Source of the DNA: Burkholderiales bacterium
Lineage (GTDB): Bacteria > Patescibacteriota > Minisyncoccia > Phycocordibacterales > UBA9973
Assembly (NCBI GenBank): GCA_023701005.1
Contig: JAMPXW010000001.1
Coordinates: forward strand, 35,769-99,768
Direction of reading: 5' to 3'
DNA: 64,000 nucleotides
A program made the translations under genes and the position numbers. Positions within the stretch are counted from its first letter, which is position 1; each line of letters begins with the position of its first letter. Of the stretch, positions 5,597 to 56,117 are shown one piece after another. The notes beneath the pieces are model-generated. The model had not been told where the DNA came from and did not search any database. It was given only the letters and a program-made list of their open reading frames with translations.

Positions 5597-7063
5597 CTAT
5601 AAATTATTCTTAAAAAAACTTTGCAGTGTGATTCTCCAAAAAAGTAGATAGACAAAATAAATATAGATAACCAAAACAAAAACTAAAGGAAAATTGGGAA
5701 TAGAAATAGCGGCAAAAGGGAGATTAGAAAAGAAACTTATTATGGACAATTCATAATGCAATAAAAGTTGAGAAACAAAACCAAAAGGAACAGAAAAAGC
5801 ATATGAAACAAACCCCGAGAGTCCCGTCAAAAACCCTAAAAGCATTGTGGGTGGGATAAAAGGCAAAATTAATATATTAGCTGGGAGAGCAACTAATGAA
5901 AGATTGCCCATTTTGTAAAGGATAAAAGGTAAAACAAACACATAACAAGCAACTGTCACAGACACAATATCTCTCAATTTAAAACGAGGAGTAACCCATA
6001 AAAAATATTTCTCTATTTTAGGAGTATAGAAAATGACAGCCACTGTGGCTATAAAAGAAAGTTGAAAAGAAACATCAAATACTAAAATAAATGGATTGAC
6101 CAAAACCATAATAACTCCAGCCAATATTAATGCTCGAGAAACATCATAATTTCTACCTATCAATCTGGCAAAAAGAGCTAAGCCTGCCATTATACCCGCT
6201 CTTACAGCAGTAGATGAACCTCCTGTCATCAAAACAAAAAGTAGAATAGAGAAAATGCCGGCCCCTAGTCCGATGTTCTTTGGAAAAGAGGCAAGCATTT
6301 TCATTATCCATTCAGCCACGATCGTCACATTATATCCAGACAAAGCGACGATGTGTATCGTTCCTGTGTTTACAAAACTCTGCCTCAGAGATTCGTCAAA
6401 AGCAGATTTTTCTCCTAAAATAAGCCCACCCATCAATAATGATTCTGGTTCCCTAATAGACAAATTCATTTTATCTAAAAATTTATCTTTAACGGAAAAC
6501 AATATACTCTTTATAAAATTGCCATTATTATGTGAATCTATCTCAACCTCTGGGTATTTAACAATATAAAAAATTCCATCTTTTCTTAAATAATTGACAT
6601 AATCAAATTCTTTTCCTTGATCTGTCATGAAATTTTCTGGTTTTTCTAATTTCCCTTTTATACTTAAACCATCACCATATTTGAAATCTAAATCTAAATT
6701 TGTAATTACTAAAATTTTAGTTTTTATTTTGTTTATAAATATTTCTACTACTAATTTTTGATTATTTTCTGTAATAGTCGGATCATCTATGACATTACCC
6801 ACAAAAGAACTTTCAACGTATTTTACATCTGGCATAGAGATATCTGCCATACCAAATCTAAAAATTCCAAAAGAAAAAGTAAGCATGAATATTCCCCAAA
6901 ATATAATAAAACTATTTTTTGAAATAAAATAATAAAACAAAATAATTCCAAAAGATATTATTCCAAATAAGATAACTAGATTTAAATTTACAAAAATAAA
7001 AGAGCGCAAAAGCACTCCTAAAATAAAACCAATGGAAGATAAATAAAATATTCTATCTTGCAT
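5597..7063 (-). CDS. comEC: ComEC/Rec2 membrane channel module (OB-fold/DUF4131-like N-terminus plus competence domain), separate from the MBL module
   Basis: Polytopic membrane protein whose C-terminal half resembles the ComEC competence domain (GSSTAVRAGIMAGLALFARLIG..LSFIATVAVI). Confidence 0.65.
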   Translation of the reverse strand: MQDRIFYLSSIGFILGVLLRSFIFVNLNLVILFGIISFGIILFYYFISKNSFIIFWGIFMLTFSFGIFRFGMADISMPDVKYVESSFVGNVIDDPTITENNQKLVVEIFINKIKTKILVITNLDLDFKYGDGLSIKGKLEKPENFMTDQGKEFDYVNYLRKDGIFYIVKYPEVEIDSHNNGNFIKSILFSVKDKFLDKMNLSIREPESLLMGGLILGEKSAFDESLRQSFVNTGTIHIVALSGYNVTIVAEWIMKMLASFPKNIGLGAGIFSILLFVLMTGGSSTAVRAGIMAGLALFARLIGRNYDVSRALILAGVIMVLVNPFILVFDVSFQLSFIATVAVIFYTPKIEKYFLWVTPRFKLRDIVSVTVACYVFVLPFILYKMGNLSLVALPANILILPFIPPTMLLGFLTGLSGFVSYAFSVPFGFVSQLLLHYELSIISFFSNLPFAAISIPNFPLVFVLVIYIYFVYLLFWRITLQSFFKNNL

Positions 7064-16083: not shown

Positions 16084-17835
16084 CTATTCAGAGACAACTC
16101 TAAATACTTCTTCCAAACTCGTCATACCCAAAACAGCTTGAAAAACTCCATCCTCTAATATTGTCATCATTCCCTCTCTCTTAGCTTGTTCTTCTATTTC
16201 ATCTTGAGAACTCCCACGAATGATCAATTCTTTTATTGATGTAGTCACTTTCAAAACTTCATGTATACCAATACGATTTGAATATCCATCAGAAGATTCA
16301 GCACTCTTTACTGGTTTATAAAAAGGAACTTGTTCCCAAGTGTCGTCTGGGCCTATCAATTTTTCATCTTTCAACATTTTTAACATTCTATCTAGGTCCA
16401 CCAATTTAGCTAAATTTTTTATCTCGTCTTTTGACAAAAAATACTTTTCTTTATTTGCGGTAAGTTTTCTAACTAACCTTTGAGCAATAATCGTTTTAAC
16501 TGTAGAAATAATAAGAAACGGCAACACTCCCATATCTATCATTCTAGGAATAGCGCCAGCAGCCGAGTTGGTGTGTATGGTAGACAAAACCAAGTGCCCC
16601 GTGAGTGCAGCATTAATGGCAAGACTTGCTGTCTCTCCATCACGGATCTCTCCTACCATCATTATGTCTGGGTCTTGACGCAAGAGTGATCGCAAACCAT
16701 TTGCGAAAGTTAAACCTATTTCTGGTTTTACTTGTGTTTGATTGACTCTAGGCATTTGATATTCTATCGGATCTTCAACTGTCGAAATATTTACTTCAGG
16801 TCTATTCAAAATATCCAACATTGTGTAAAGTGTCGTCGTCTTACCAGAACCAGTAGGTCCCGTCGCGAGCACCATTCCTATTCTTTGTTTTAAAGATTCA
16901 TGAATTCTCTCCAACCCCTCCCCATGAAAACCAAGAGAATCAAGAGAAAATCCATGAGAACTTTCTTTCAATATTCTTATAACAGTTTTCTCTCCATAAA
17001 AGGTAGGCAAGGTAGAAACACGAAAAGAAATTTTTTCTCCATTTTGTTCTATCTTAAATCTCCCATCTTGAGGTAGCCTTTTTTCATCCAATTTTAAATT
17101 TGCTAAAACTTTTATACGTGTAGTTATGCCCGGACCGGTATTTTTATCTAAAATCATAGCATCGTGTAATATGCCATCTATCCTATATCTAACGATAAGC
17201 TCTTTCTCTCCTGGTTCGATGTGTATATCTGAAGTATTTTGCAAAATAGCATGGAAGATTAGAGAATCAACAATTTTTATCACCGGCAAATCTTCCGCGA
17301 GTGCTTTCAACTCAGCTTCTGTTTTCTCTCCTTCTTTTTTATTTACATCAGTATTTAAAGATAGTGTTTCTTTTTGAATAATATTATCAAAATCTGCCTG
17401 TAAACTTTTTCTGTATTGGACCAAAGCAGCTTTTATGGAAGCACTGTCTGTAATTCTAGGAAGAATCCTTTCTCCTGAACGTTTCTTTATAAAATCTATC
17501 ATTGGTAAATCATCAACATCAAGCATCGCTACCTCTAAACCTACATCACTTTTTTCATATGCAATAATATTATGATTCCTAGCAATAGGTTCAGGAATTA
17601 GAGAAAGAATAGAAAAATCAATTTTTTTCTTTAATAAAGAAACAAATGGTATTTCCAAAACATAAGCTTCCATTCTTTTCAAATCCGTTTCTGAAATTTT
17701 GCCATCTGAAAGTAAAACATCACTTAATTTTTGTTTAGATTCTTCTGCTTTTTTTACCATTTCATCCAAAACAGAACGTGTGACAATTCCAGAATCTAAA
17801 ACAACTTTTTTAAATTGCTCTTCATTAATTTGCAT
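16084..17835 (-). CDS. pilB: type IV pilus assembly ATPase PilB (GspE family)
   Basis: Walker A GPTGSGKTTTLYTML and GspE-type N-terminal domain. Confidence 0.9.
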   Translation of the reverse strand: MQINEEQFKKVVLDSGIVTRSVLDEMVKKAEESKQKLSDVLLSDGKISETDLKRMEAYVLEIPFVSLLKKKIDFSILSLIPEPIARNHNIIAYEKSDVGLEVAMLDVDDLPMIDFIKKRSGERILPRITDSASIKAALVQYRKSLQADFDNIIQKETLSLNTDVNKKEGEKTEAELKALAEDLPVIKIVDSLIFHAILQNTSDIHIEPGEKELIVRYRIDGILHDAMILDKNTGPGITTRIKVLANLKLDEKRLPQDGRFKIEQNGEKISFRVSTLPTFYGEKTVIRILKESSHGFSLDSLGFHGEGLERIHESLKQRIGMVLATGPTGSGKTTTLYTMLDILNRPEVNISTVEDPIEYQMPRVNQTQVKPEIGLTFANGLRSLLRQDPDIMMVGEIRDGETASLAINAALTGHLVLSTIHTNSAAGAIPRMIDMGVLPFLIISTVKTIIAQRLVRKLTANKEKYFLSKDEIKNLAKLVDLDRMLKMLKDEKLIGPDDTWEQVPFYKPVKSAESSDGYSNRIGIHEVLKVTTSIKELIIRGSSQDEIEEQAKREGMMTILEDGVFQAVLGMTSLEEVFRVVSE

Positions 17836-17900: not shown

Positions 17901-20900
17901 TTAATTTTCTTTGTAACCAGGTTTTTTCTCTCCTACTGTCACTGTGACTGTCGAATCAGCTGTTATAAAAGAAGTAGTATTCTCACAACTAATTCTGTAA
18001 GTAGTAGTTTGTGTCGGACTAACTATCACCCCAACACTATTACTAACAGCACCTCCTGTATTAAAACCTGCGGTCAAACTTGTACACGTGTCAGCATGCA
18101 TAGTAGACCATTTAATTGTTGAAGATTCACCCTTGACTATAGTTATGGGATCAGCTGTAAATGAAATTATAGTAGGTGCTGGAGGTGGAAATGTTGTACA
18201 AGTTGGAGGATTAGTAGCACTATTTATACATAACCCAGAACTATTTACAGTACAAGCTGAATAATTCACTGCTCCGTTACTACAAGTAGGAGTGTCACTT
18301 ACTATCACTGTAAATGCACTTGTATCTGTTTCTCCAGTTGAATCTTTTAAAGCTTGTATAGAATATCCATATGTATTAGCAATATCTGGAGCTGCTATCA
18401 GCATACTTCCCCTACATGGTGAATATGAATTAAGAGGTGTGCCAACATTGTCTAACAATCTACAACTAGCAGGACCATCTGTTACGGTATAGGTTGCAGA
18501 AATTGTCCTGTCTGGCAATGTTACTGAATATGTTGTTGGATTTACAGAAATATCAAAAGTAGGAATAGGTGCATCATTTACCGTCACCGTAAACATATCA
18601 CTTGTACTTGTTTCTCCCGTCGAAGCTTTAGTTGCTCTCATATAGTATCCATAAACTCCAGCTGCCGCCGGTGTATCATAAGTTATTGGACTAGTACAAG
18701 AAATATCTGTTTTAAGAGTAGCTTGATTATTATCAAGCAAGTAACAATCAGTATTAGTTCCCGTACCATTAGTCAAAGTATACGAAGCACTAAATGCTGT
18801 CGTTGGAAGTGTAATAGTAGAATTTGCTGGAGTCGAAATACTTAAAGGATTTGTAAATACATCACATGTTGGATAATTTGTAGCTCCGTTTGCACAAGTG
18901 TTGGCACTGAATGTCGCTGTCACTGTACAATTTGCAGTGATAGCTCCTGTAGTATAAGTATTTCCACTAAGTGTTCCGCTACAACCAGAAACTGTGTTTA
19001 TAGAATAATCAGTATTTGGAGTGACGGTAAATGTAGTGGTTAATCCATAAGCAACAGTTCTTGAAGCTGGAGTAATAGCTCCGCCCGTTCCCGCTGTTCC
19101 CGTGACTGTATAAGATTTACATGCTCCCGCAGTTGGATTCCACGCAGTGCCCGAAGCACAAGCAGCGACGGTAGCAGCTGCTCCAGAAGCAGAAGCCAAC
19201 AATTGTCCATTATTATAAAGATAAAAATCTCTTGAAGGATAGGGAATAGTTACTGAGCCACTTCCTGAATTCCCTGTATAAACTGTAGTATTAGCACTAG
19301 GATATGAAGAAGTCACAGCAGATGTTCCTTGAGGATTTGTAGTACTCCAAACAGCAGTCGAAGTACAAGACGAAGCATTGGCAAGAATTGTACAATCTGG
19401 AACAGAAAGAGTTCCTGACATTGTTTTGACTTCAGTACAACTTGCATTAGCTCCTCCATTTAAACCACTACAAATCCATCCGTAATTTGTATTTAAATTA
19501 CTGTAACTTACTGTATTGGTGCCTCCCGTACTTGTTCCCGCAAGATTTGTTCCTGCTGTACAACCATAATGGGCTACTGCACACACACCATTTACTGGCG
19601 CAGAACCTACAGTAACTGTTACAGAACGAGTTACACTTCCTCCCAGCCCAGTACATTCAAGAGTATAAGTTTTTGATGATGTTAAAGCTCCTGTAGAAAC
19701 ATTAGTCCCTGAAGTAGCTTTCGTTCCTGTCCATGCATCACTAGCAGTACATGTTGTAGCATCTGTTGTAGACCAAGTTAAATAAGACGTCCCATTGTAT
19801 ACAATAGAAGGTGGGTTTGCTGAGAAATTAAGAGTCGGAGCTGGTGACAAAGTTGTAAAATATCCTTCTGTTGAATATCCATATCCTGTAGTATTTCTGG
19901 CATATCCTTTAAATCTGTAGTCAGTACCTGAGCTCAAACCAGTGACATTGACAAAAAATGCTCCTGTCGAAGTACCTCCTTCGACTGCACAATTTCCAGC
20001 AGTATAGACACCGCTACTCAATCTCCAACATATTCCACGTTCTGAAATAGAAGCAGGAACACCCAAAGATGAAACATTTGCTCCTAAAGTTACAGAAGAT
20101 AAACCAACGGAAGAATCAGTGGGATAAATAACTGTAGGCACAGCATTAGTAGTACATGCGCTTCCCGTCCATGTCGTTCCTGTAGCACAAACAGCGGATA
20201 TAGTTAAAGGACCACTCAACAAAACAGCATTATTGTAGAGATAAAAACTTCTAGATGGATAATGAATAGTAGCTATCACATCTCCAGAATTTCCAGAGCC
20301 AACCAAAGTACTGACCGTGGTGCCTGAATTATTGGTAGGACTATAAACTGCAGAAGTGGCTTGAGGATTGACTGTATTCCACATAATTGAATTTAAACTA
20401 CAAGTACTATTACCAGCAGAAATAGTACAAGAGGTGCTTCCATCTTCTGACCACAAAGTTCCACTCATTGGAGGTGTCGTAACAGTGACTGTCGTAAAAT
20501 CTCCACAGTTATTATTTTCATTTGATTCAGTAATAGATCCAACAAATGATGCATTATTATCAGCACAAGCTCTTATATAATAAGTCCCAGAACTCGAAAA
20601 AGTGAACGATGCGCCTACTGTCTTACTTTCATTCACAGCAAAAGCTGTAGAAGTCGTAGCGACTTTACCTGTCCCATTTACAAGTTGAAAATAATGATTG
20701 ATAGATGTAGCACTAGTAGCACTAGTTCCTATATTGCTTATGTCTGCAGAAAATGTCGTCGCTACATTCGTACTAGCTGATGAAGGAGTCACACTTCCGG
20801 CTGTCAGATCTGGAAAAGTAGGAGCTGCTTCTACAATAACATTAACTGTATCTTCTGCAGTAATCGAAGAATTGTCTGCTTTCTTGCCAACAGCTGTAAC

Positions 20901-38543: not shown

Positions 38544-38990
38544 ATGAAAAAACAAACTCTCATATTGTTATTTATTTGCCTTACTCTAACTATCAACGCC
38601 CAAATGGTAACTGACCAAAAAGTACCAGTTTTAAAAACCGCTCAAGAAACTTCATCTATAATTAATTCCCTCTTCTCAAATATACAAAAAGAAAAAGGTA
38701 TTAATGTAGACGTAAACAGCAGAATGGTCGGTGATATTTCAGTAGACAATGTAATCCTCGACGGAATAGTAGTAGCGACAATCCTTTCCGATAAAGGATT
38801 AAAAGCAAAAAAAGAATTATCTACATTCTCAGAATTTGTTCAATTGATCAAAGAATTAAAAGAAGTCGGGAATTTCCAATATCCCAAAATCGTAAATATC
38901 TTTGTATTAAAAGACATCAGAGATGACTATGTAATTCTTGCGATTAGGGAAGGCACCGAAATTCCTTCTTTTGTAAGAAAATTATTGTAA
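38544..38990 (+). CDS. secreted hypothetical protein
   Basis: Signal peptide MKKQTLILLFICLTLTINAQ. Confidence 0.5.
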   Translation: MKKQTLILLFICLTLTINAQMVTDQKVPVLKTAQETSSIINSLFSNIQKEKGINVDVNSRMVGDISVDNVILDGIVVATILSDKGLKAKKELSTFSEFVQLIKELKEVGNFQYPKIVNIFVLKDIRDDYVILAIREGTEIPSFVRKLL

Positions 38991-38992
38991 GC

Positions 38993-39040
38993 GCATTTGT
39001 AAAAGCACATTTTACAAATGCGCTTTTACATTTTTATGCA
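38993..39040. terminator. 14-bp-arm perfect inverted repeat GCGCATTTGTAAAA-GCAC-ATTTTACAAATGCGC plus T-run
   Basis: Seen directly between convergent genes. Confidence 0.55.
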
Positions 39041-42046: not shown

Positions 42047-43765
42047 CTAATACACCTCTCCATTATAACATTTCTCACAATACACAATCTCTGGTCGATC
42101 AGGAGAATAAGAAGTTTCAAATTCATTAGTGCAGTTTTCTTTCATGCACTTCCTATGCCAGAGTTTTAAGGGATTTCTTTGTTTAAATCTAGTATAATAT
42201 CTGCAATTAGAACACAACCTAGGTAAAGGAATATCAAATCTCTTATAAAAAGTTAATTCATCTCGAATTATTTTAAATGCTGTAGTACAACGATCTTTAC
42301 ATTCTCCCTTGTGTTCACATCCTATGATTTCGTTTACTATATCATCTGAAACGTCTTTTATGTCATCCGGTATATCTTTTGGTAAAATAGTGGGTTTATA
42401 ATTACGTGTTTCAGAATCTTTCCAAGACAAGCCACTAGCCAAAATCTCTTCTTTTTCTTTTAAAAAATAGTCTTGAGCTATTGTTTCGTTATAACAAAAT
42501 GGAGATAATTCTGTTGGAAAAAATTCTCCATATTTATAAATATTTCCTTTTTTATCAATGTAAGGCATATCATTCATATGTTTTATAATCTTTTCTCTCA
42601 ATACAAAAAAATCTTCTTTTTTGTATTGTTTATTAAAGATACAATAATGTTTATTCCGTAGACCTAAACAAGCGAAAAGATTAGAAGAATTAAAACAATT
42701 AAACGAATATTCTACATTTTCTGTTGTATATACATTACTACAAAATAAACAATTTTTACCACCCACTCCTGTGTCAAAAGACTCATACCCCAACTCGAGC
42801 ATCCCAACAGCTGGACCACAACTAATGCAATCTTTTATTCCTCTCGCGGTCCAAAATACATCCTTTGAGTCCTCCACTCCACCAGTACTATCAAAACAAT
42901 AATGAGCATTCTTACCATTTTCGATATTATTACCAGAAACATTATAGGAATTCAAAATATGAGCAAAGCGATGAATTGATTTTAATTTCATTTCCTCAAA
43001 ATCTTTCTTTTTTTGTTGAATTGAGGAGTAACTACTTAAATTTATTTCTTTCATTCTCTTCTGATATTCTTCTTTGGTTAATTGTCGATTAAAAAAACAA
43101 TAACTTTTACTCCTCATATTTGAGCACATAAAACAATCCGTGCAACCCCTGCAATCATATAAAAAATATGAATTCACACAATTATGAGAATCTTGACTAT
43201 AAAAAAGTTGATATGAATCAGTACAATTTACATCATCGTAAGAAAACTGTGTTCTATGGACAACATACAAGTCCATCGAATCTTTTATATCAGTTATCGA
43301 ATTAGAATAGAAGACCCTCTCGTTTTTCCAGGAAGCAGATATTAAGTAACAATCCTTACTTTCATCTGCAAAATTACAATAATCACTATTTATTCCTTGT
43401 GAATTTGTGAGGCCTTGCAATGGAAATTTATTTCTAAATTCTGCCCATTGTTCAAAGAAAGGCTTGGAAAAATTGTACTCAATACTATAACTAAAAGGAT
43501 CCCAGCTATCTCCCCACCACGTTTTTTGATCTATTACGATTAAATTTTTATCTGAAGAATAACTTGAGATAAAGTCCTTGCCCCAAAAACTATCTTTTCT
43601 TCTATATAAAGCATGCGTATTTCTGTATGCCAAACGTCTTTGTAATCTACATTCTCTGCAGAAAGTAGGTGGAGGGACTTTTATTTTCTCATAAAAATTA
43701 AAATCTTCAGGCTCTATCGTAAAGTCTTTCTTGCAATTCTGACAGGTTTTATTTTGAGCTTCCAT
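42047..43765 (-). CDS. 572-aa Cys-rich protein with zinc-ribbon-like terminal modules; paralog of 52712..54379
   Basis: N-terminal C..C-FYEK-PPP-C.EC-RRLA.RN and C-terminal FYKR-IPLP-C..C-RNP-L..RKCMK-C.NEFET.YSPDR.EIVYCE.CY modules are shared with the other copy. Internal CxxC-rich repeats. Confidence 0.6.
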   Translation of the reverse strand: MEAQNKTCQNCKKDFTIEPEDFNFYEKIKVPPPTFCRECRLQRRLAYRNTHALYRRKDSFWGKDFISSYSSDKNLIVIDQKTWWGDSWDPFSYSIEYNFSKPFFEQWAEFRNKFPLQGLTNSQGINSDYCNFADESKDCYLISASWKNERVFYSNSITDIKDSMDLYVVHRTQFSYDDVNCTDSYQLFYSQDSHNCVNSYFLYDCRGCTDCFMCSNMRSKSYCFFNRQLTKEEYQKRMKEINLSSYSSIQQKKKDFEEMKLKSIHRFAHILNSYNVSGNNIENGKNAHYCFDSTGGVEDSKDVFWTARGIKDCISCGPAVGMLELGYESFDTGVGGKNCLFCSNVYTTENVEYSFNCFNSSNLFACLGLRNKHYCIFNKQYKKEDFFVLREKIIKHMNDMPYIDKKGNIYKYGEFFPTELSPFCYNETIAQDYFLKEKEEILASGLSWKDSETRNYKPTILPKDIPDDIKDVSDDIVNEIIGCEHKGECKDRCTTAFKIIRDELTFYKRFDIPLPRLCSNCRYYTRFKQRNPLKLWHRKCMKENCTNEFETSYSPDRPEIVYCEKCYNGEVY

Positions 43766-43821
43766 AATGGTAAATATTTTAACACTATTAATTATAACAG
43801 ATTTTAATACTTTAAAACAAA

Positions 43822-43858
43822 AGAGCGGTTCTTTTTTAAAGAACCGCTCTTTTTATTA
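43822..43858 (-). terminator. pnp terminator AAAGAGCGGTTCTTT-TTT-AAAGAACCGCTCTTT
   Basis: Seen directly. Confidence 0.55.
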
Positions 43859-48781: not shown

Positions 48782-48822
48782 AAAAATAGCCCGCACTAAC
48801 ATGCGGGCTAAATATTTCACTA
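48782..48822. repeat. 41-bp hairpin repeat, copy 1: AAAAATAGCCCGCACTAACATGCGGGCTAAATATTTCACTA (terminator-like)
   Basis: Near-identical to 49429..49469. Confidence 0.5.
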
Positions 48823-49347
48823 CTTATTGTGTTTCTTTAATAATTCTCCAGCCAATCTTAAATTAATATCATTAATTATCCGATCAAGATATTCCGGCAA
48901 AATAGGAGTTTCGTAATCTGAAGAATTCATGTGAATTCTAAAATTAACTTCAAAATTCCTACACCTTTCAACAAGAGAAATTGGCCCAGCTGAAACAAAA
49001 AGATGCAAAGGTTTTTCTGGGTCCTCTTTATCTTTGTTTTCTAAAGACAAGGTCACACTCTTGCTAGAAATTAATCTTGCATATGGAGTTTTGAGAGTTT
49101 CCTCTGACATATCCATTGTCGATAGAAAATGTTTCTCTCCAAAAGAACCAGACGATCCAAATCCTATTTCTGTCTCCATATTTCCATCTTCGATAGAAAC
49201 ATTCGTGACTTTAAAAAATGGATAATTAGATTCTTTTTTAAGGGAATTAAAAACATCATAAACAGCAAAGAAAAGTTTTTCTCCTAAAATAGAATCCACC
49301 TTCAAAACTGATAAAAATTTATCAGAAAATATGATTCTCATAAACAC
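48820..49347 (-). CDS. hypothetical 175-aa protein bracketed by the two hairpin repeats
   Basis: ORF with no recognisable motif. Confidence 0.4.
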   Translation of the reverse strand: MFMRIIFSDKFLSVLKVDSILGEKLFFAVYDVFNSLKKESNYPFFKVTNVSIEDGNMETEIGFGSSGSFGEKHFLSTMDMSEETLKTPYARLISSKSVTLSLENKDKEDPEKPLHLFVSAGPISLVERCRNFEVNFRIHMNSSDYETPILPEYLDRIINDINLRLAGELLKKHNK

Positions 49348-49428: not shown

Positions 49429-49469
49429 TAAAAATAGCCCGCACTAACATGCGGGCTAAATACTTCACT
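49429..49469. repeat. 41-bp hairpin repeat, copy 2 (one mismatch versus copy 1)
   Basis: Seen directly. Confidence 0.5.
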
Positions 49470-49983
49470 AAACATTAAATTTAAAATAAATTGCCACCTT
49501 TTTGGCTTCGGCGGCCAGATCTCCTTTCTGTTGTACAATAAATTTACAAAACCAATCCAAATATTCTAGACTCCTAAAGCCTAACCCCCAATTTACACTC
49601 TCCAACAGAGAAAATTTTTGTTTAGAAATATGATACATCATATCTCTCGTCATTATAACTTTGCCTTCTTCTAGAAGAGAAGAAACAAAATTAGAAAACC
49701 TAGAAAACGATTCTTTATACTCTCCTGCTTTCATTTCCAGAGATCCAATTGTTTTCAACACATGATTTCTCTGTTCTTGAAAAGAAAGAATATCATCATC
49801 TAGAGAGAAACCAAAAATCTCAAAAAAAATTTTCTTTTCTTTCTCTAGTTCTTCTTTTTCTTGTACTTTTTTCTCACTTTCTCTTTTAGCTTTTAATATT
49901 GGATTAATTCTCCAAAAAAAATAAAAAGCAAAAAGTATTATACCGACAGTAACAACAACGGAAATAACATTCGAGAGTTCCAT
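49468..49983 (-). CDS. hypothetical N-terminally anchored protein
   Basis: 171-aa ORF with TM VISVVVTVGIILFAFYFFW. Confidence 0.4.
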   Translation of the reverse strand: MELSNVISVVVTVGIILFAFYFFWRINPILKAKRESEKKVQEKEELEKEKKIFFEIFGFSLDDDILSFQEQRNHVLKTIGSLEMKAGEYKESFSRFSNFVSSLLEEGKVIMTRDMMYHISKQKFSLLESVNWGLGFRSLEYLDWFCKFIVQQKGDLAAEAKKVAIYFKFNV

Positions 49984-52190: not shown

Positions 52191-52616
52191 ATGGAAGACG
52201 ATGTATACAAAACCGAAAAATTTAGAAGCGAGGCTATTCGTAATTTTTTAAGTTATCAAACAATCAAATATAATTTGACAAACGTAGCAACCTTGCAAAG
52301 AGAATTCTATCCAATAGTTTTTGAAAAAGAAGAATGTTCTATTGGTGAGATACAACTTAAAGACGGTTCTATTTACCTATGTGATGCAATCGTACCAAAC
52401 TCTGAAATTAAAAACGTATTGCTTGAGGTAAAAAGAATAAAAGACGAATGGTTAATCATTATGTCTGTTAATTTTTTTGGTTTAAAACTTTGTGTCCATC
52501 TTACAAAAGAAAAGAACGAATATCCCATTGATGGGCCAATAACGATAAAACCTAGGTTTAAAATAATTTGCAAGGCAGACGATTCATCTCTACATAGAAA
52601 TGACAATATGCCTTAA
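52191..52616 (+). CDS. hypothetical 141-aa protein
   Basis: ORF with an AGGAG RBS. Confidence 0.4.
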   Translation: MEDDVYKTEKFRSEAIRNFLSYQTIKYNLTNVATLQREFYPIVFEKEECSIGEIQLKDGSIYLCDAIVPNSEIKNVLLEVKRIKDEWLIIMSVNFFGLKLCVHLTKEKNEYPIDGPITIKPRFKIICKADDSSLHRNDNMP

Positions 52617-52711: not shown

Positions 52712-54379
52712 ATGAATAAAATTTGCAAAACATGCAAGAAAAGATTTGAAATGGATGAGGGAGATCTAAATTTTTATGAAAAAATGAAGTCTCCTCCACC
52801 AAATTATTGTCCAGAATGTCGTGTAGCACGTAGACTCGCTTTTCGTAATGAAAGAACTTTATATAAAAGAACTTGTAGTAAAAGTGGCAAACCAATAATA
52901 TCTATCTATCCTGAAAATACACCCTTCCCCGTTTACGACCAACATTTTTGGTGGGGAGATGATTGGGAAGCACTAGATTATGGGCAAGACTATAATCCAA
53001 ACAAAACTTTTTTCGAACAATTTCTTGAACTTAGAAATAAAATCCCGAGAATATCTTTGTTAAACATCAACGGAGTAAACAGTGATTATGTAAATAATTC
53101 AGAAGACAATAAAAATTGTTACCTTCTGTTTGCGGCACAGAAAAATGAAGATTGTATGTATGGTAGGTTGGTGTATAGAAGTCGTTTCGTTATTGATAGT
53201 GATTTCGTTCAAGATTCAGAGCTCTGTTACGACTGCATAGATTGCAGGAATTGTTATAATTGTTTACTTTGTGACAATTGCGAGACGAGCACTGACTTAG
53301 TCTCTTGTTTTAATTTAAAAGATTGCCAAAACTGCATTTTCTCAACAAATCTAAGACATAAAAATTATCACATTTTTAATAAACCATTTTCAAAAGAGGA
53401 ATTTGAAGAAAAGAAAAAAGAAATTTTATCTTCATATTCTAATTTAGAAAAAGCAAAAGAGGAATTTGAAGAATTTAAAAAGAAAGCCATTGTGAAATAT
53501 TCTTATCAAGTTAAATGCCATAACGCCACTGGTGATTATATGTACAATTGCCATGATGTTAAGCATGGCTTTGATACTGAAAATTCTAAAAACTGTAGAT
53601 ATGTGGCAGACGCAGAAAGTACGATAGATTGTTGGGATATGAATAATACATATTACAAACCAGAGCTCAATCTAGACGTGATGGGAGCACTGCAAACATA
53701 TAATGTTAAACATTCAGTCTATGCGTTAACTTCAAGTAATATTGAATATTGTGACAGTGTGCACAATTGCGAAAGCTGTTTTGGTTGTGTTGGTTTAAAA
53801 AAGAAAAAATATTGTATTTTGAATAAACAATACACAAAAGAAGAATATGAAAAATTAAAAAAAGAAATAGTAGAGAATATGAAAAAAGAAGGGATCTATG
53901 GAGATTTTATTTCCCCAGAATTATCTCCTTTTGGTTATAATGAAACTCTTGCACAAAACTATATGCCTCTAACAAAAGAAATAGCAAAAGAAAGAGGTTT
54001 CAACTGGCAAGAAGAAACTACAGGAACTTATGGCAAAGAAACAATGGCAAAGATACCTGAAACAATAGAAGAAATAACTGAAGACCCGTCTACAGACGAG
54101 GCAAGTATTTTGAAAGAAATTTTAGTATGTGAAGAATGTAAGAAAAATTTTAGAATAACAAAAGCTGAATTAGATTTTTACAAAAGGATGAATATTCCTT
54201 TACCTCATAAAGATTTCGAATGCAGGCACAGAGAAAGAATGTCTAAAAGAAATCCTCGAAAACTCTGGAATAGGAAATGCATGAAAGACGGTTGTCAAAA
54301 TGAATTTGAAACAGCCTATTCCCCAGATAGATCTGAAATAGTATATTGTGAATCTTGTTATCAACAAGAAATTTATTAA
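52712..54379 (+). CDS. 555-aa Cys-rich protein; paralog of 42047..43765
   Basis: Shares the N- and C-terminal zinc-ribbon-like modules and internal CxxC repeats with the other copy. Confidence 0.6.
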   Translation: MNKICKTCKKRFEMDEGDLNFYEKMKSPPPNYCPECRVARRLAFRNERTLYKRTCSKSGKPIISIYPENTPFPVYDQHFWWGDDWEALDYGQDYNPNKTFFEQFLELRNKIPRISLLNINGVNSDYVNNSEDNKNCYLLFAAQKNEDCMYGRLVYRSRFVIDSDFVQDSELCYDCIDCRNCYNCLLCDNCETSTDLVSCFNLKDCQNCIFSTNLRHKNYHIFNKPFSKEEFEEKKKEILSSYSNLEKAKEEFEEFKKKAIVKYSYQVKCHNATGDYMYNCHDVKHGFDTENSKNCRYVADAESTIDCWDMNNTYYKPELNLDVMGALQTYNVKHSVYALTSSNIEYCDSVHNCESCFGCVGLKKKKYCILNKQYTKEEYEKLKKEIVENMKKEGIYGDFISPELSPFGYNETLAQNYMPLTKEIAKERGFNWQEETTGTYGKETMAKIPETIEEITEDPSTDEASILKEILVCEECKKNFRITKAELDFYKRMNIPLPHKDFECRHRERMSKRNPRKLWNRKCMKDGCQNEFETAYSPDRSEIVYCESCYQQEIY

Positions 54380-54389
54380 TCCTCTCCTT

Positions 54390-54445
54390 CCCCGAAGCCC
54401 AGCTTCGGGGAAAATAAAATCCCCCAAATTTTTATTTTTTGGGGG
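54390..54445. terminator. tandem hairpins CCCCGAAGC-CCA-GCTTCGGGG and CCCCCAAA-T-rich-TTTGGGGG
   Basis: Seen directly after the Cys-rich gene. The second hairpin overlaps the stop of the convergent ORF. Confidence 0.55.
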
Positions 54446-54866
54446 TTTGTAATGGATGCTTTTCAATTTCTTTTGAAAGTTTTTCAGAAATAACTTTAAT
54501 GAAATCCCAAACATTATCGCTATGATCAATATAATCGTGACAATCTGTGCCAAAAGAAGCATTAATCTCAAAATAATTAATAAAGTCCACAGGATTTATA
54601 GGACCTACTTTAAGATACATATCACCAGACAATGCTCCTCTGCGGTAGAATTTTAAAAAGAATTTAGTTTCTCCCAGGAAAATAATCTCAGAATTTTCAT
54701 AACTTAAAAAGGTATCGCCTGCCACTATCTCGAGAGAAAGAGGGGTGATACCCGATATAAATTCTTTATCCTTTGTCTCCTCTAAAAATTTTTTTAAGAA
54801 ATTTTTTACACAAAATAATACTTTTTCTCCTTTTAGCTGAGCTCCTTTCAAAAAGAAAACCTTCAT
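54432..54866 (-). CDS. hypothetical 144-aa protein
   Basis: ORF only. Confidence 0.35.
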   Translation of the reverse strand: MKVFFLKGAQLKGEKVLFCVKNFLKKFLEETKDKEFISGITPLSLEIVAGDTFLSYENSEIIFLGETKFFLKFYRRGALSGDMYLKVGPINPVDFINYFEINASFGTDCHDYIDHSDNVWDFIKVISEKLSKEIEKHPLQTPKK

Positions 54867-55016: not shown

Positions 55017-56117
55017 TTACTTATTTTTGAAAGTAGTCAAAATATCTTTGAACTCTTTCATTTCCATAGAAAATTCACCTTCTACATTTAAGCCTTTTTC
55101 ATAACTTATCTGCAAACGTGTAATTTTCATTACTGACTCCACTTTTGATTCTGAAACAGATTTTTCTTTTGTTTCAACAACCGGTGCTGAAACTCTTTCA
55201 TCTGCCATTTCTTCCAAATTAATCTCTTCTTGTGGCATTGTTATGCCGTGAGAAATTTGTTTGATTTCTTCAGGAGAAATTCTGTCTACATTGATTATGC
55301 TGCCAGTTTCTAATTCTTTTTCATTCTGAATAAGAAATATGCCATCAAATTCAGCATCTACTGCTGTATATAATGGATTAAAACATGCTGCTTGGCAAAC
55401 CATTTGTTTTAACTCTTCTTCTCCTTCAAACAACACATAAGCCAAATATCCTGGTTCATTTTTAAAATTTGAAACAACATTTGAACCATCAGCAAAGAAA
55501 GAAACAAATCTACCAGTAATCCATCCTTTCAAAACTTCTCCAATTATTCGAAACTTTCTATGAAAAGTGCGAGTCGTTACCAACTCTATGTCTTTTCTCA
55601 TTTGTTCTTTGGTGATTGTCTCAAAGGCTGGAGCTTCATCAATCATCGGAGGTCCTGCTTGGACAGATGTTTCTACAACAGCAGCTTCTGCAATTTGTGA
55701 TTGTTTCCTTATTCTCTCTGCTATCAAGGCAATAATAGTAGCACAAAGAAGAATCAACAAAATTAACATAGCTGAGTCATCTTCTTTCTTGTGAGATATC
55801 TTAAAAGTTGGAGAATCTTTGTAATTCCCTGTCTTTTCTCTTAATGCTTTAACAGCTGCAGCCCACTTAGAATTAACTTCAATCGGGTCCGCTATGTAAA
55901 AAGTTTTTTCTCCTCCCAAAGAAACAAAAATCGTATCACCAACATCAAGACTATCGTGGTTTGGTGAAGGATTAATATTTTTTATTTCCAACCATTTTTG
56001 GCCAACATTGAATGCTGGGCCAGTTTCTCCGCCAGGTGCTTTTTGAGCATAGGTAAAAGAAAACGATGCAATTAACAACATTGCAAGAACGAATATTGAT
56101 TTTACAAAGGACTTCAT
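55017..56117 (-). CDS. hypothetical bitopic membrane protein (signal peptide, ~120-aa exodomain, TM, ~230-aa cytoplasmic domain)
   Basis: MKSFVKSIFVLAMLLIASFSFTYAQ and a central TM MLILLILLCATIIALIA. Confidence 0.45.
   Translation of the reverse strand: MKSFVKSIFVLAMLLIASFSFTYAQKAPGGETGPAFNVGQKWLEIKNINPSPNHDSLDVGDTIFVSLGGEKTFYIADPIEVNSKWAAAVKALREKTGNYKDSPTFKISHKKEDDSAMLILLILLCATIIALIAERIRKQSQIAEAAVVETSVQAGPPMIDEAPAFETITKEQMRKDIELVTTRTFHRKFRIIGEVLKGWITGRFVSFFADGSNVVSNFKNEPGYLAYVLFEGEEELKQMVCQAACFNPLYTAVDAEFDGIFLIQNEKELETGSIINVDRISPEEIKQISHGITMPQEEINLEEMADERVSAPVVETKEKSVSESKVESVMKITRLQISYEKGLNVEGEFSMEMKEFKDILTTFKNK

Follow-up and report, generated by a model that had tools for sequence, protein, structure and literature searches.

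Two long, cysteine-rich open reading frames (ORFs) lie in a 64,000-nt stretch of contig JAMPXW010000001.1 (assembly GCA_023701005.1, positions 35,769 to 99,768; hereafter the window), and are referred to here as copy 1 and copy 2. They are ancient duplicates within a large, uncharacterised family of Parcubacteria proteins, in which two homologous, positively charged zinc modules bracket a body that probably folds as two tight beta-helices. This structural and evolutionary description of the family as a whole is very probably correct. The functional part of the explanation is a hypothesis, inferred rather than demonstrated, namely that the proteins act as zinc-stabilised, two-ended adaptors that bind nucleic acid or a partner, and to this we assign a probability of roughly 0.3.

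Paralogy of the two window proteins

The original prediction, made from the sequence alone, described two paralogous ORFs with matching end modules, and both are present at the positions and on the strands given in Table 1, oppositely oriented and separated by 8.9 kb. Full-length BLASTP alignment of their products gives 39% identity (224/577; E 9e-121), and this end-to-end similarity identifies them as true paralogs. The N-terminal, C-terminal and K.YCI(F/L)NKQY.KEE(Y/F) motifs that had been picked out by eye can be read in both copies, the second occurrence of the KEE(Y/F) motif in copy 1 being KEDF. Copy 1 is 100% identical to NDI62_00380, which is annotated as 'hypothetical protein', and copy 2 has orthologs of its own at 56–89% identity. 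A tblastn search of the window found no third copy, either intact or degenerate. The family proteins are soluble and of about 65 kDa, with an isoelectric point (pI) of about 6, and they are predicted to be cytoplasmic, with no signal peptide; computation on the copy 1 sequence found no hydrophobic segment.

Zinc modules at both ends

The domain layout of copy 1 (Table 1) was derived from a 73-sequence alignment spanning both subfamilies, together with an AlphaFold2 model of copy 1 (predicted local distance difference test score, pLDDT, 82; predicted TM-score, pTM, 0.84). The end modules are the best-conserved parts of the family proteins. In the N-terminal module, C8 is conserved at 99% and the other three cysteines, C11, C36 and C39, do not vary. 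The model has strands at residues 4-7 and 14-17, and a helix at 37-45 that begins at the second CxxC (assigned by DSSP, pLDDT >90), so that the modelled topology is that of a treble clef, a beta-hairpin with a helix at the second CxxC pair. This helix bears the conserved sequence CRxxRRLxxRN, and its counterpart in the C-terminal module is CRHxxRxxKRN. The two modules are homologous (hhalign 98.8%, E 9e-17, 51 columns) and share 17/56 identities when aligned without gaps, which bears out both the resemblance first noticed by inspection and the bracketed architecture deduced from it, with homologous zinc-ribbon-like modules at the two ends. Both are basic, with family mean net charges of +5.0 +/- 1.8 (N-terminal) and +7.8 +/- 1.7 (C-terminal). 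Of the seven regions other than the treble clefs, six have a negative net charge (-0.9 to -5.6) and one, the helix following the first solenoid, is about neutral (+1.3).

Cysteine conservation in the C-terminal module is 96–100%, with C483, C493 and C521 each at 96%. The third ligand, C518 (alignment columns 569-571), is a Cys in every member of the copy-1 subfamily (100%) and in none of the copy-2 subfamily, where it is probably replaced by a conserved His located two residues upstream (column 569; residues 499-501 of copy 2). To judge from the alignment, the metal site of this module is probably CCCC in the copy-1 subfamily and CCHC in the copy-2 subfamily. The module is followed by a Cys4 ribbon whose ligands, C540, C545, C563 and C566, are each 96% conserved, and which varies less across the family than any other segment (lowest column entropy, 0.99). 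The ribbon, at the extreme C-terminus, is acidic and folded, and an Arg-rich stretch lies near the C-terminus. In about half of the family, an insertion separates C540 from C545 (alignment columns 595-637; consensus CMCxxxxHxHxxxC), and its extra Cys and His residues may form an additional metal site; both window copies are without this insertion.

A duplicated body with a probable cysteine ladder

Between the end modules are two regions that align well with each other (hhalign 99.5%, E 1e-22, 118 columns), which shows them to be an internal duplication, and both end in NLRxKxYxIxNxQxSKEEY followed by a helix. Family-wide, 99.4% of the cysteines of the first half fall in one mod-3 register (48% in shuffled sequences), and the same is true of all those in copy 1 (9/9) and copy 2 (12/12). 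Positions in the register hold mainly Cys (31%), Ser (24%), Leu (10%) and Val (7%), and those outside it Asp, Tyr, Asn, Phe and Glu. Autocorrelation of the profile gave peaks at all multiples of 3, the highest being at lags 12, 24 and 27, and a control region gave no period-3 peak. The internal cysteines probably form the inward Cys/Ser ladder of a tight beta-helix, in which the coil length is probably 12 residues.

High conservation among the internal cysteines is limited to C208/C211 and C366/C375 (C366 being invariant and C375 conserved at 84%); the remaining positions are filled in one subfamily and empty in the other. The many internal C..C and NC..C pairs noted in the original prediction are thus present, but to read them as independent zinc knuckles is improbable given that 99% occupy a single mod-3 register and that their occupancy shifts between subfamilies. 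Each half does contain one all-Cys coil (C205/208/211/214 in copy 1 and C172/175/178/181 in copy 2), so a metal site may be present within the beta-helix.

Two other regions complete the chain. The Trp-rich region that follows the N-terminal module has invariant W88 and Q106, with W83, W84, D86, Y97 and F103 at least 90% conserved in the alignment; it is modelled at pLDDT 86-95, contains 20% aromatic residues and carries a net charge of -3.6. The acidic core at residues 400-480 is strongly conserved and modelled at pLDDT >90, and resembles no known fold.

Table 1. Positions of the two paralogs, the regions of copy 1 and the hairpins flanking its gene block in the window
Feature	Position in window	Strand	Details
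Copy 1	42047..43765	-	Complete 572-aa ORF including stop codon; ~68 kDa, pI 6.58, 31 Cys (5.4%)
Copy 2	52712..54379	+	555-aa paralog of the same architecture, second conserved subfamily; 33 Cys (5.9%)
N-terminal basic treble-clef Zn module, residues 1-57	43595..43765	-	Predicted ligands C8, C11, C36, C39
Degenerate ribbon-like hairpin and Trp-rich motif, residues 58-115	43421..43594	-	WWGDxWDP...KPFFxQWxELRxKxP
Beta-solenoid half 1, residues 116-262	42980..43420	-	Putative Cys/Ser ladder; ends in NMRSKSYCFFNRQLTKEEY, then helices
Beta-solenoid half 2, residues 263-399	42569..42979	-	Ends in GLRNKHYCIFNKQYKKEDF, then helix 383-399; from hhalign, DSSP and pLDDT
Conserved acidic core, residues 400-480	42326..42568	-	YGEFFPxELSPFxYNETxAQDYF
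C-terminal basic treble-clef Zn module, residues 481-539	42149..42325	-	Predicted ligands C483, C493, C518, C521
C-terminal Cys4 ribbon, residues 540-572	42050..42148	-	C540, C545, C563, C566; CxNEFETSYSPDRPEIVYCExCY
Perfect 16-bp palindromic hairpin between PNPase end and copy 1 start	43819..43853	.	Scan for terminator-like sequences and reading of the sequence
Perfect 16-bp hairpin directly downstream of YifB	38989..39025	.	Scan for terminator-like sequences

Distribution and copy number

The family is large. Each copy has more than 6,000 homologous proteins at E<=1e-3 in a 90%-clustered database, and the top 120 matches to each are full length or nearly so, almost all being unnamed or labelled 'hypothetical'. 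Searched with a profile, a set of 1.84 billion 50%-identity representatives yielded 5,098 proteins at E<=1e-3 and 2,272 at E<=1e-30, and at least 584 coding stretches were found in GTDB species representatives. Among the best 80 of these 584 or more stretches, from which taxon labels were taken, almost all are labelled Patescibacteria, with lineages that include Nomura-, Staskawicz-, Giovannoni-, Kaiser-, Wolfe- and Jorgensenbacteria, Sungiibacteriota, RAAC4_OD1_1 and Paceibacterota/Minisyncoccia. Three carry other labels: 'Gammaproteobacteria' (a 2-kb contig), 'Nanobdellota archaeon' (a 4-kb contig) and the 'Burkholderiales bacterium' of the window itself, all of which are probably binning or labelling errors. 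In the case of the window, the GC content (~32%), a gene content typical of Patescibacteria (PilB-type ATPase, ComEC, RecJ and H+-PPase), and the identity that YifB (86%) and polynucleotide phosphorylase (PNPase; 84%) share with their counterparts in a Paceibacterota metagenome-assembled genome (locus L039) indicate a Patescibacteria genome, likely a mislabelled bin. All clearly labelled members are from Patescibacteria (Parcubacteria, class Paceibacteria), although more distant matches than these best 80 may include members from outside Parcubacteria.

Copy number was examined in 84 related loci (a few of them redundant), each extending +/-6 kb and chosen by similarity to copy 1. Clustering of their ORFs gave 166 family members, and 51 of the 84 loci carry 2-5 copies, nearly always on the same strand. 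At least six copies were counted across the fetched loci of each of two assemblies, JACQGC01 (L045, L059 and L069) and CAILLM01 (L035 and L057). Co-located copies are not close relatives: identity to the closest neighbour has a median of 44% and a maximum of 61%, and for 97.5% of copies a closer relative exists in another locus (median identity 60%). These values indicate the stable retention of ancient, distinct paralogs. Recent tandem duplication, or a diversifying array, was considered and rejected, as no co-located pair exceeds 61% identity. The clustering of orthogroups was too unclean to define a conserved order of genes within the arrays, and copy-1-like genes are over-represented in the locus set. 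The copy-number and phyletic checks suggested in the original prediction thus revealed a many-copy expansion, in which named matches (best 80 of at least 584) are almost all from Patescibacteria. Parcubacteria/Paceibacteria genomes are roughly 0.6-1 Mb, and the maintenance by some of them of six or more anciently diverged 1.7-kb paralogs implies that the family must matter to these organisms; it ranks among the more expanded gene families of such minimal genomes.

Gene neighbourhoods in related loci and the VirD4-like ATPases

In the related loci, family genes are found near genes for class II ribonucleotide reductase (RNR) and RseP, which are unrelated housekeeping functions. Further neighbours, which we take from reading their sequences to be PurL, PurQ, GrpE, DnaJ, UvrC, a SpoU methyltransferase and a CutA-like protein, are of the same kind. 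Four loci (L037, L050, L052 and L056) have a single family gene between what are presumably purL and purQ, named likewise by reading and specifying subunits of phosphoribosylformylglycinamidine (FGAM) synthase, and this arrangement points to insertion into an otherwise conserved operon.

The sole recurrent neighbour outside the housekeeping class is a P-loop ATPase of ~510 aa. It matches the Pfam domains TrwB_AAD_bind, DUF87 and TraG-D_C, and the NCBIfam models for VirD4-like CD1115 (2.8e-14) and TraD (1.4e-13), with scores that are all far below the curated cut-offs. A TrwB/VirD4/TraD-like ATPase of this type occurs within 6 kb in 28 of the 84 loci, and directly adjoins a family gene 26 times. 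Typically a gene for a membrane protein comes first, followed by the ATPase, the family array, a second ATPase paralog and dnaJ, and the pattern spans Nomura-, Staskawicz-, Kaiserbacteria and other lineages. The closest non-trivial orthologs of copy 1 (L006-L010) are in ATPase-flanked arrays. In L006, L023, L029, L034, L035, L040, L042, L045, L065 and others, an array of one to five family genes has one or two VirD4/TraD/HerA-like ATPases next to it on the same strand; where there are two ATPases, they are paralogs with 42-49% identity. A membrane protein of ~460 aa without a Pfam family often precedes the flanking ATPases, and the unit of ATPase plus family array is often embedded between dnaK/grpE and dnaJ. 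A recent survey of Patescibacteria reported 5,713 VirD4-like homologs of the type IV coupling protein (T4CP) in 2,918 genomes, with 148 located near virB4 (2025; PMC12102498). The VirD4-like T4CP homologs are orphan coupling-type ATPases, and the family described here offers a testable lead on these otherwise unexplained proteins of Patescibacteria.

A possible function and its alternatives

We propose that the acidic body of two beta-helices would form a rigid unit, stabilised by at least three structural zinc ions, and that the two positively charged recognition heads it carries would make the protein a two-ended adaptor or clamp. The ligand of the treble-clef helices would be nucleic acid or else an acidic partner. 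Paralogs may cooperate with one another as hetero-oligomers or serve different targets, and in many relatives they might act jointly with the flanking orphan ATPases, for example in the handling of DNA or nucleoprotein. A bolder version, in which the family supplies the missing partners of the thousands of VirD4-like ATPases, with hetero-oligomers of paralogs gripping DNA or nucleoprotein by their two basic heads and passing it to the hexameric ATPase, is a long shot. If true, it would represent an unrecognised module for DNA or nucleoprotein trafficking, specific to episymbionts and independent of the canonical type IV secretion channel.

A number of considerations weigh against the adaptor proposal. 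There is neither homology nor experiment linking the family to nucleic-acid binding, and treble-clef modules also mediate protein-protein contacts. The inward orientation of the cysteines and the 12-residue coil come from periodicity and composition, not from coordinates; lag 27 scores as high as lag 12 in the autocorrelation, and the solenoid region of the model has a pLDDT of only 60-70. A VirD4-like ATPase is absent from the window and from two thirds of the related loci. The ATPase linkage is possibly inherited synteny, given that the loci lack phylogenetic independence and were picked by similarity to copy 1. The other neighbours (PurL/PurQ, RNR, GrpE/DnaJ and UvrC) are unrelated housekeeping genes. 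Finally, the conserved residues are dispersed over the whole chain of the alignment and not clustered, which leaves room for an enzymatic role.

Such a role is unlikely. The active site would be drawn from the Trp-rich segment, the ELSPFxYNET core and the invariant polar residues D21, E149, D165, N378, E427 and E503, with the zinc modules and helices serving as a scaffold. Many polar and aromatic residues outside the zinc sites are invariant, the core at 400-480 is both strongly conserved and very confidently modelled, and the keeping of several non-redundant paralogs in tiny genomes would fit enzymes with differing substrates. Against this, the searches of Pfam, NCBIfam, PDB and Foldseek uncovered no likeness to any catalytic family or fold, the dispersed residues make up no recognisable catalytic motif, and a nucleotide- or cofactor-binding signature is lacking.

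It is improbable that the proteins are structural or cytoskeletal polymers of the bactofilin kind, in which beta-helices would stack, or join through their end modules, and paralogs would co-polymerise. The beta-solenoid body (with CsgA as its closest structural match), homologous modules at both ends that are also the most conserved parts, and the frequency of tandem, co-directional paralogs would all suit a polymer, and in one locus (L003) the family lies between ftsZ/ftsA and mreB. That locus is the only one of the 84 with a cell-division context, however, no Pfam match to bactofilins or filament families was seen, and a basic zinc finger with a recognition-type helix would be unusual as a polymerisation interface.

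Somewhat more improbable is a metal or redox function, whether in storage or delivery of zinc or iron-sulfur clusters, or as an Hsp33-like thiol-switch holdase co-regulated with the dnaK operon. The proteins are 5-6% Cys with one all-Cys coil per half, arrays occur between dnaK/grpE and dnaJ in several genomes, and a CutA-like gene sometimes adjoins, yet the internal cysteines other than C208/C211 and C366/C375 are not conserved between subfamilies, and Ser, Leu and Val replace Cys at register positions, as would be expected of packing residues rather than ligands. Motifs of the ferredoxin type (CxxCxxCxxxCP) or DnaJ type (CxxCxGxG) are also missing.

Least probable of all is that the proteins are substrates or effectors translocated by the orphan VirD4-like ATPases into the host of the episymbiont, with the basic C-terminal module as recruitment signal: the 26 adjoining ATPases (often on both sides of an array), the Arg-rich region near the C-terminus and an expansion of the sort often seen in effector repertoires would fit, but the paralogs are ancient and slowly evolving (orthologs ~60% identical across species, with no recent duplicates), unlike effectors that diversify. 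A compactly folded protein with several zinc sites is also badly suited to secretion that requires unfolding, the chain ends in an acidic folded ribbon and not in a disordered basic tail, and most T4CP homologs are not near a type IV secretion system (PMC12102498).

Whichever function applies, the proteins are a tractable target for structural genomics, being soluble, of ~65 kDa and zinc-stabilised.

Neighbourhood within the window

Copy 1 is co-directional with genes for a 290-aa protein (putatively membrane located), a DksA/TraR protein and YifB/ComM, with gaps of 35-70 nt. The last of these is a Mg-chelatase-type AAA+ protein (Pfam E 5e-89), the DksA/TraR zinc finger is a marginal match (24.3 bits; cut-off 24.9) and the 290-aa protein has no Pfam match. 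The two hairpins listed in Table 1 have T-rich flanks and lie in short intergenic gaps, giving them the look of bidirectional terminators. From their sequences, the one at 43819-43853 is likely a terminator and the upstream limit of the copy 1 transcription unit, and the one at 38989-39025 is likely the downstream limit of the unit from copy 1 to YifB. An operon of these four genes in the window is therefore locally plausible, bracketed as it is by two 16-bp hairpins, in line with what had been suggested from the sequence, but the partners are not conserved near the family. The PNPase/290-aa/DksA/YifB block recurs in only two of the 84 loci, both from close relatives: in L046 the PNPase, membrane protein, DksA and YifB genes are contiguous without a family gene, which is found downstream, and in L039 family genes occupy other positions inside the block. 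The membrane protein, DksA and YifB were for these reasons rejected as functional partners, and as they are not conserved neighbours of the family they say little about its function.

The ORFs around copy 2 (48820-49347, 49468-49983, 52191-52616, 54432-54866 and 55017-56117) gave no significant Pfam match, one of them, of 171 aa, having a marginal match to LapA_dom (E 0.009). None of the 84 related loci contains a homolog of the ORFs in this cluster, which by this comparison are lineage-specific orphans. The dnaK/dnaJ block is not in the window. Elsewhere in the window, the ORFs at 5597-7063, 16084-17835 and 17901-21974 specify a ComEC-type competence protein, a PilB-type T2SSE ATPase and, adjoining the latter, a protein of 1,357 aa that matches nothing in Pfam except a CARDB domain. 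Genes of this sort, for DNA uptake, pili and the cell surface, are typical of the group.

Comparison with known systems

The original prediction could not place the family, and the searches agree: Pfam and NCBIfam have no model above threshold for either copy, and neither PDB nor Foldseek comparisons gave a significant match. The outcome that would have spoken against the original prediction, a confident match to a known family lacking expansion or conservation, was not obtained: the family is large, conserved and expanded. A literature search found no description of it. The paper on CPR-C4 proved to be unrelated. Readings as a defence system, phage or mobile element were rejected, with no PADLOC match and no relatives in viral contigs, phage or plasmid records. 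The sole PHROG match of the family, between residues 170-369 of copy 2 and PHROG 15341 (E 8.6e-4), a phage family without known function, is weak and may be mere compositional or repeat similarity. Labels attached to some homologs, such as 'Caib/baif family protein' and 'YbaR (Trm112 family)', are unsupported annotation transfers (weak Trm112p matches occur in 2/73 members).

The nearest relatives of the end modules are two Pfam domains that are themselves functionally uncharacterised, zf_Tbcl (PF13451, a 'probable treble clef domain') and zf_Tbcl_2 (PF23477). The first matches the N-terminus of copy 2 at 16.1 bits (E 0.011; gathering threshold 24) and the second its C-terminus at 14.9 bits (cut-off 27); copy 1 matches neither. 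Across the family, zf_Tbcl is matched at E<=0.01 by 21/73 members (best 3.7e-6) and zf_Tbcl_2 by 4/73, and a few copy-2 orthologs carry a precomputed PF13451 annotation. The 21 matching members and these annotations indicate that the end modules are divergent relatives of zf_Tbcl. Like zf_Tbcl, the N-terminal module has two CxxC pairs spaced by about 24 residues, the second of which marks the start of a helix. Unlike either domain, the family protein extends far beyond the zinc module: only about 15% of it is covered, and the remaining ~480 residues, about 85% of the length, are without a curated model.

Whether queried with one sequence or with the family profile, PDB yielded no more than an insignificant LIM-like match (E 0.59 to 1.1), which pairs the C-terminal WHRxC...C...YCExCY with the second finger of avian CRP (1ctl), with a ligand spacing that departs from the LIM consensus. 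The internal runs of CxxCxxCxxC are without the Pro or Gly signature of the 4Fe-4S (CxxCxxCxxxCP) and DnaJ (CxxCxGxG) motifs, both of which are absent.

The body resembles generic beta-solenoids, such as the curli subunit CsgA (the closest structural match), ice-binding proteins and left-handed beta-helix acyltransferases. The Pfam Hexapep models recognised no [LIV]-G-x4 repeats of the kind found in left-handed hexapeptide-repeat proteins, and Foldseek found no match in PDB. The cysteine ladder is reminiscent of the tight, Cys-ladder beta-helices of the antifreeze proteins (AFPs) of Tenebrio molitor (PDB 1EZG) and spruce budworm (PDB 1M8N), the helix repeat of the former being TCTxSxxCxxAx. 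The family differs from Tenebrio-type AFPs in having no Thr-x-Thr ice-binding face, the outward positions being Asp, Tyr, Asn, Phe and Glu, as well as no sequence homology and no signal peptide or hydrophobic segment, and for these reasons the likeness is best explained by convergence. It is also unlikely that the cysteines of the family are disulfide-bonded. Treble-clef zinc modules and beta-solenoids are each known individually, and what distinguishes this family, which has no curated model or solved relative, is their combination in a cytoplasmic protein, where a pair of homologous, basic zinc heads encloses two beta-helices with a Cys/Ser ladder.

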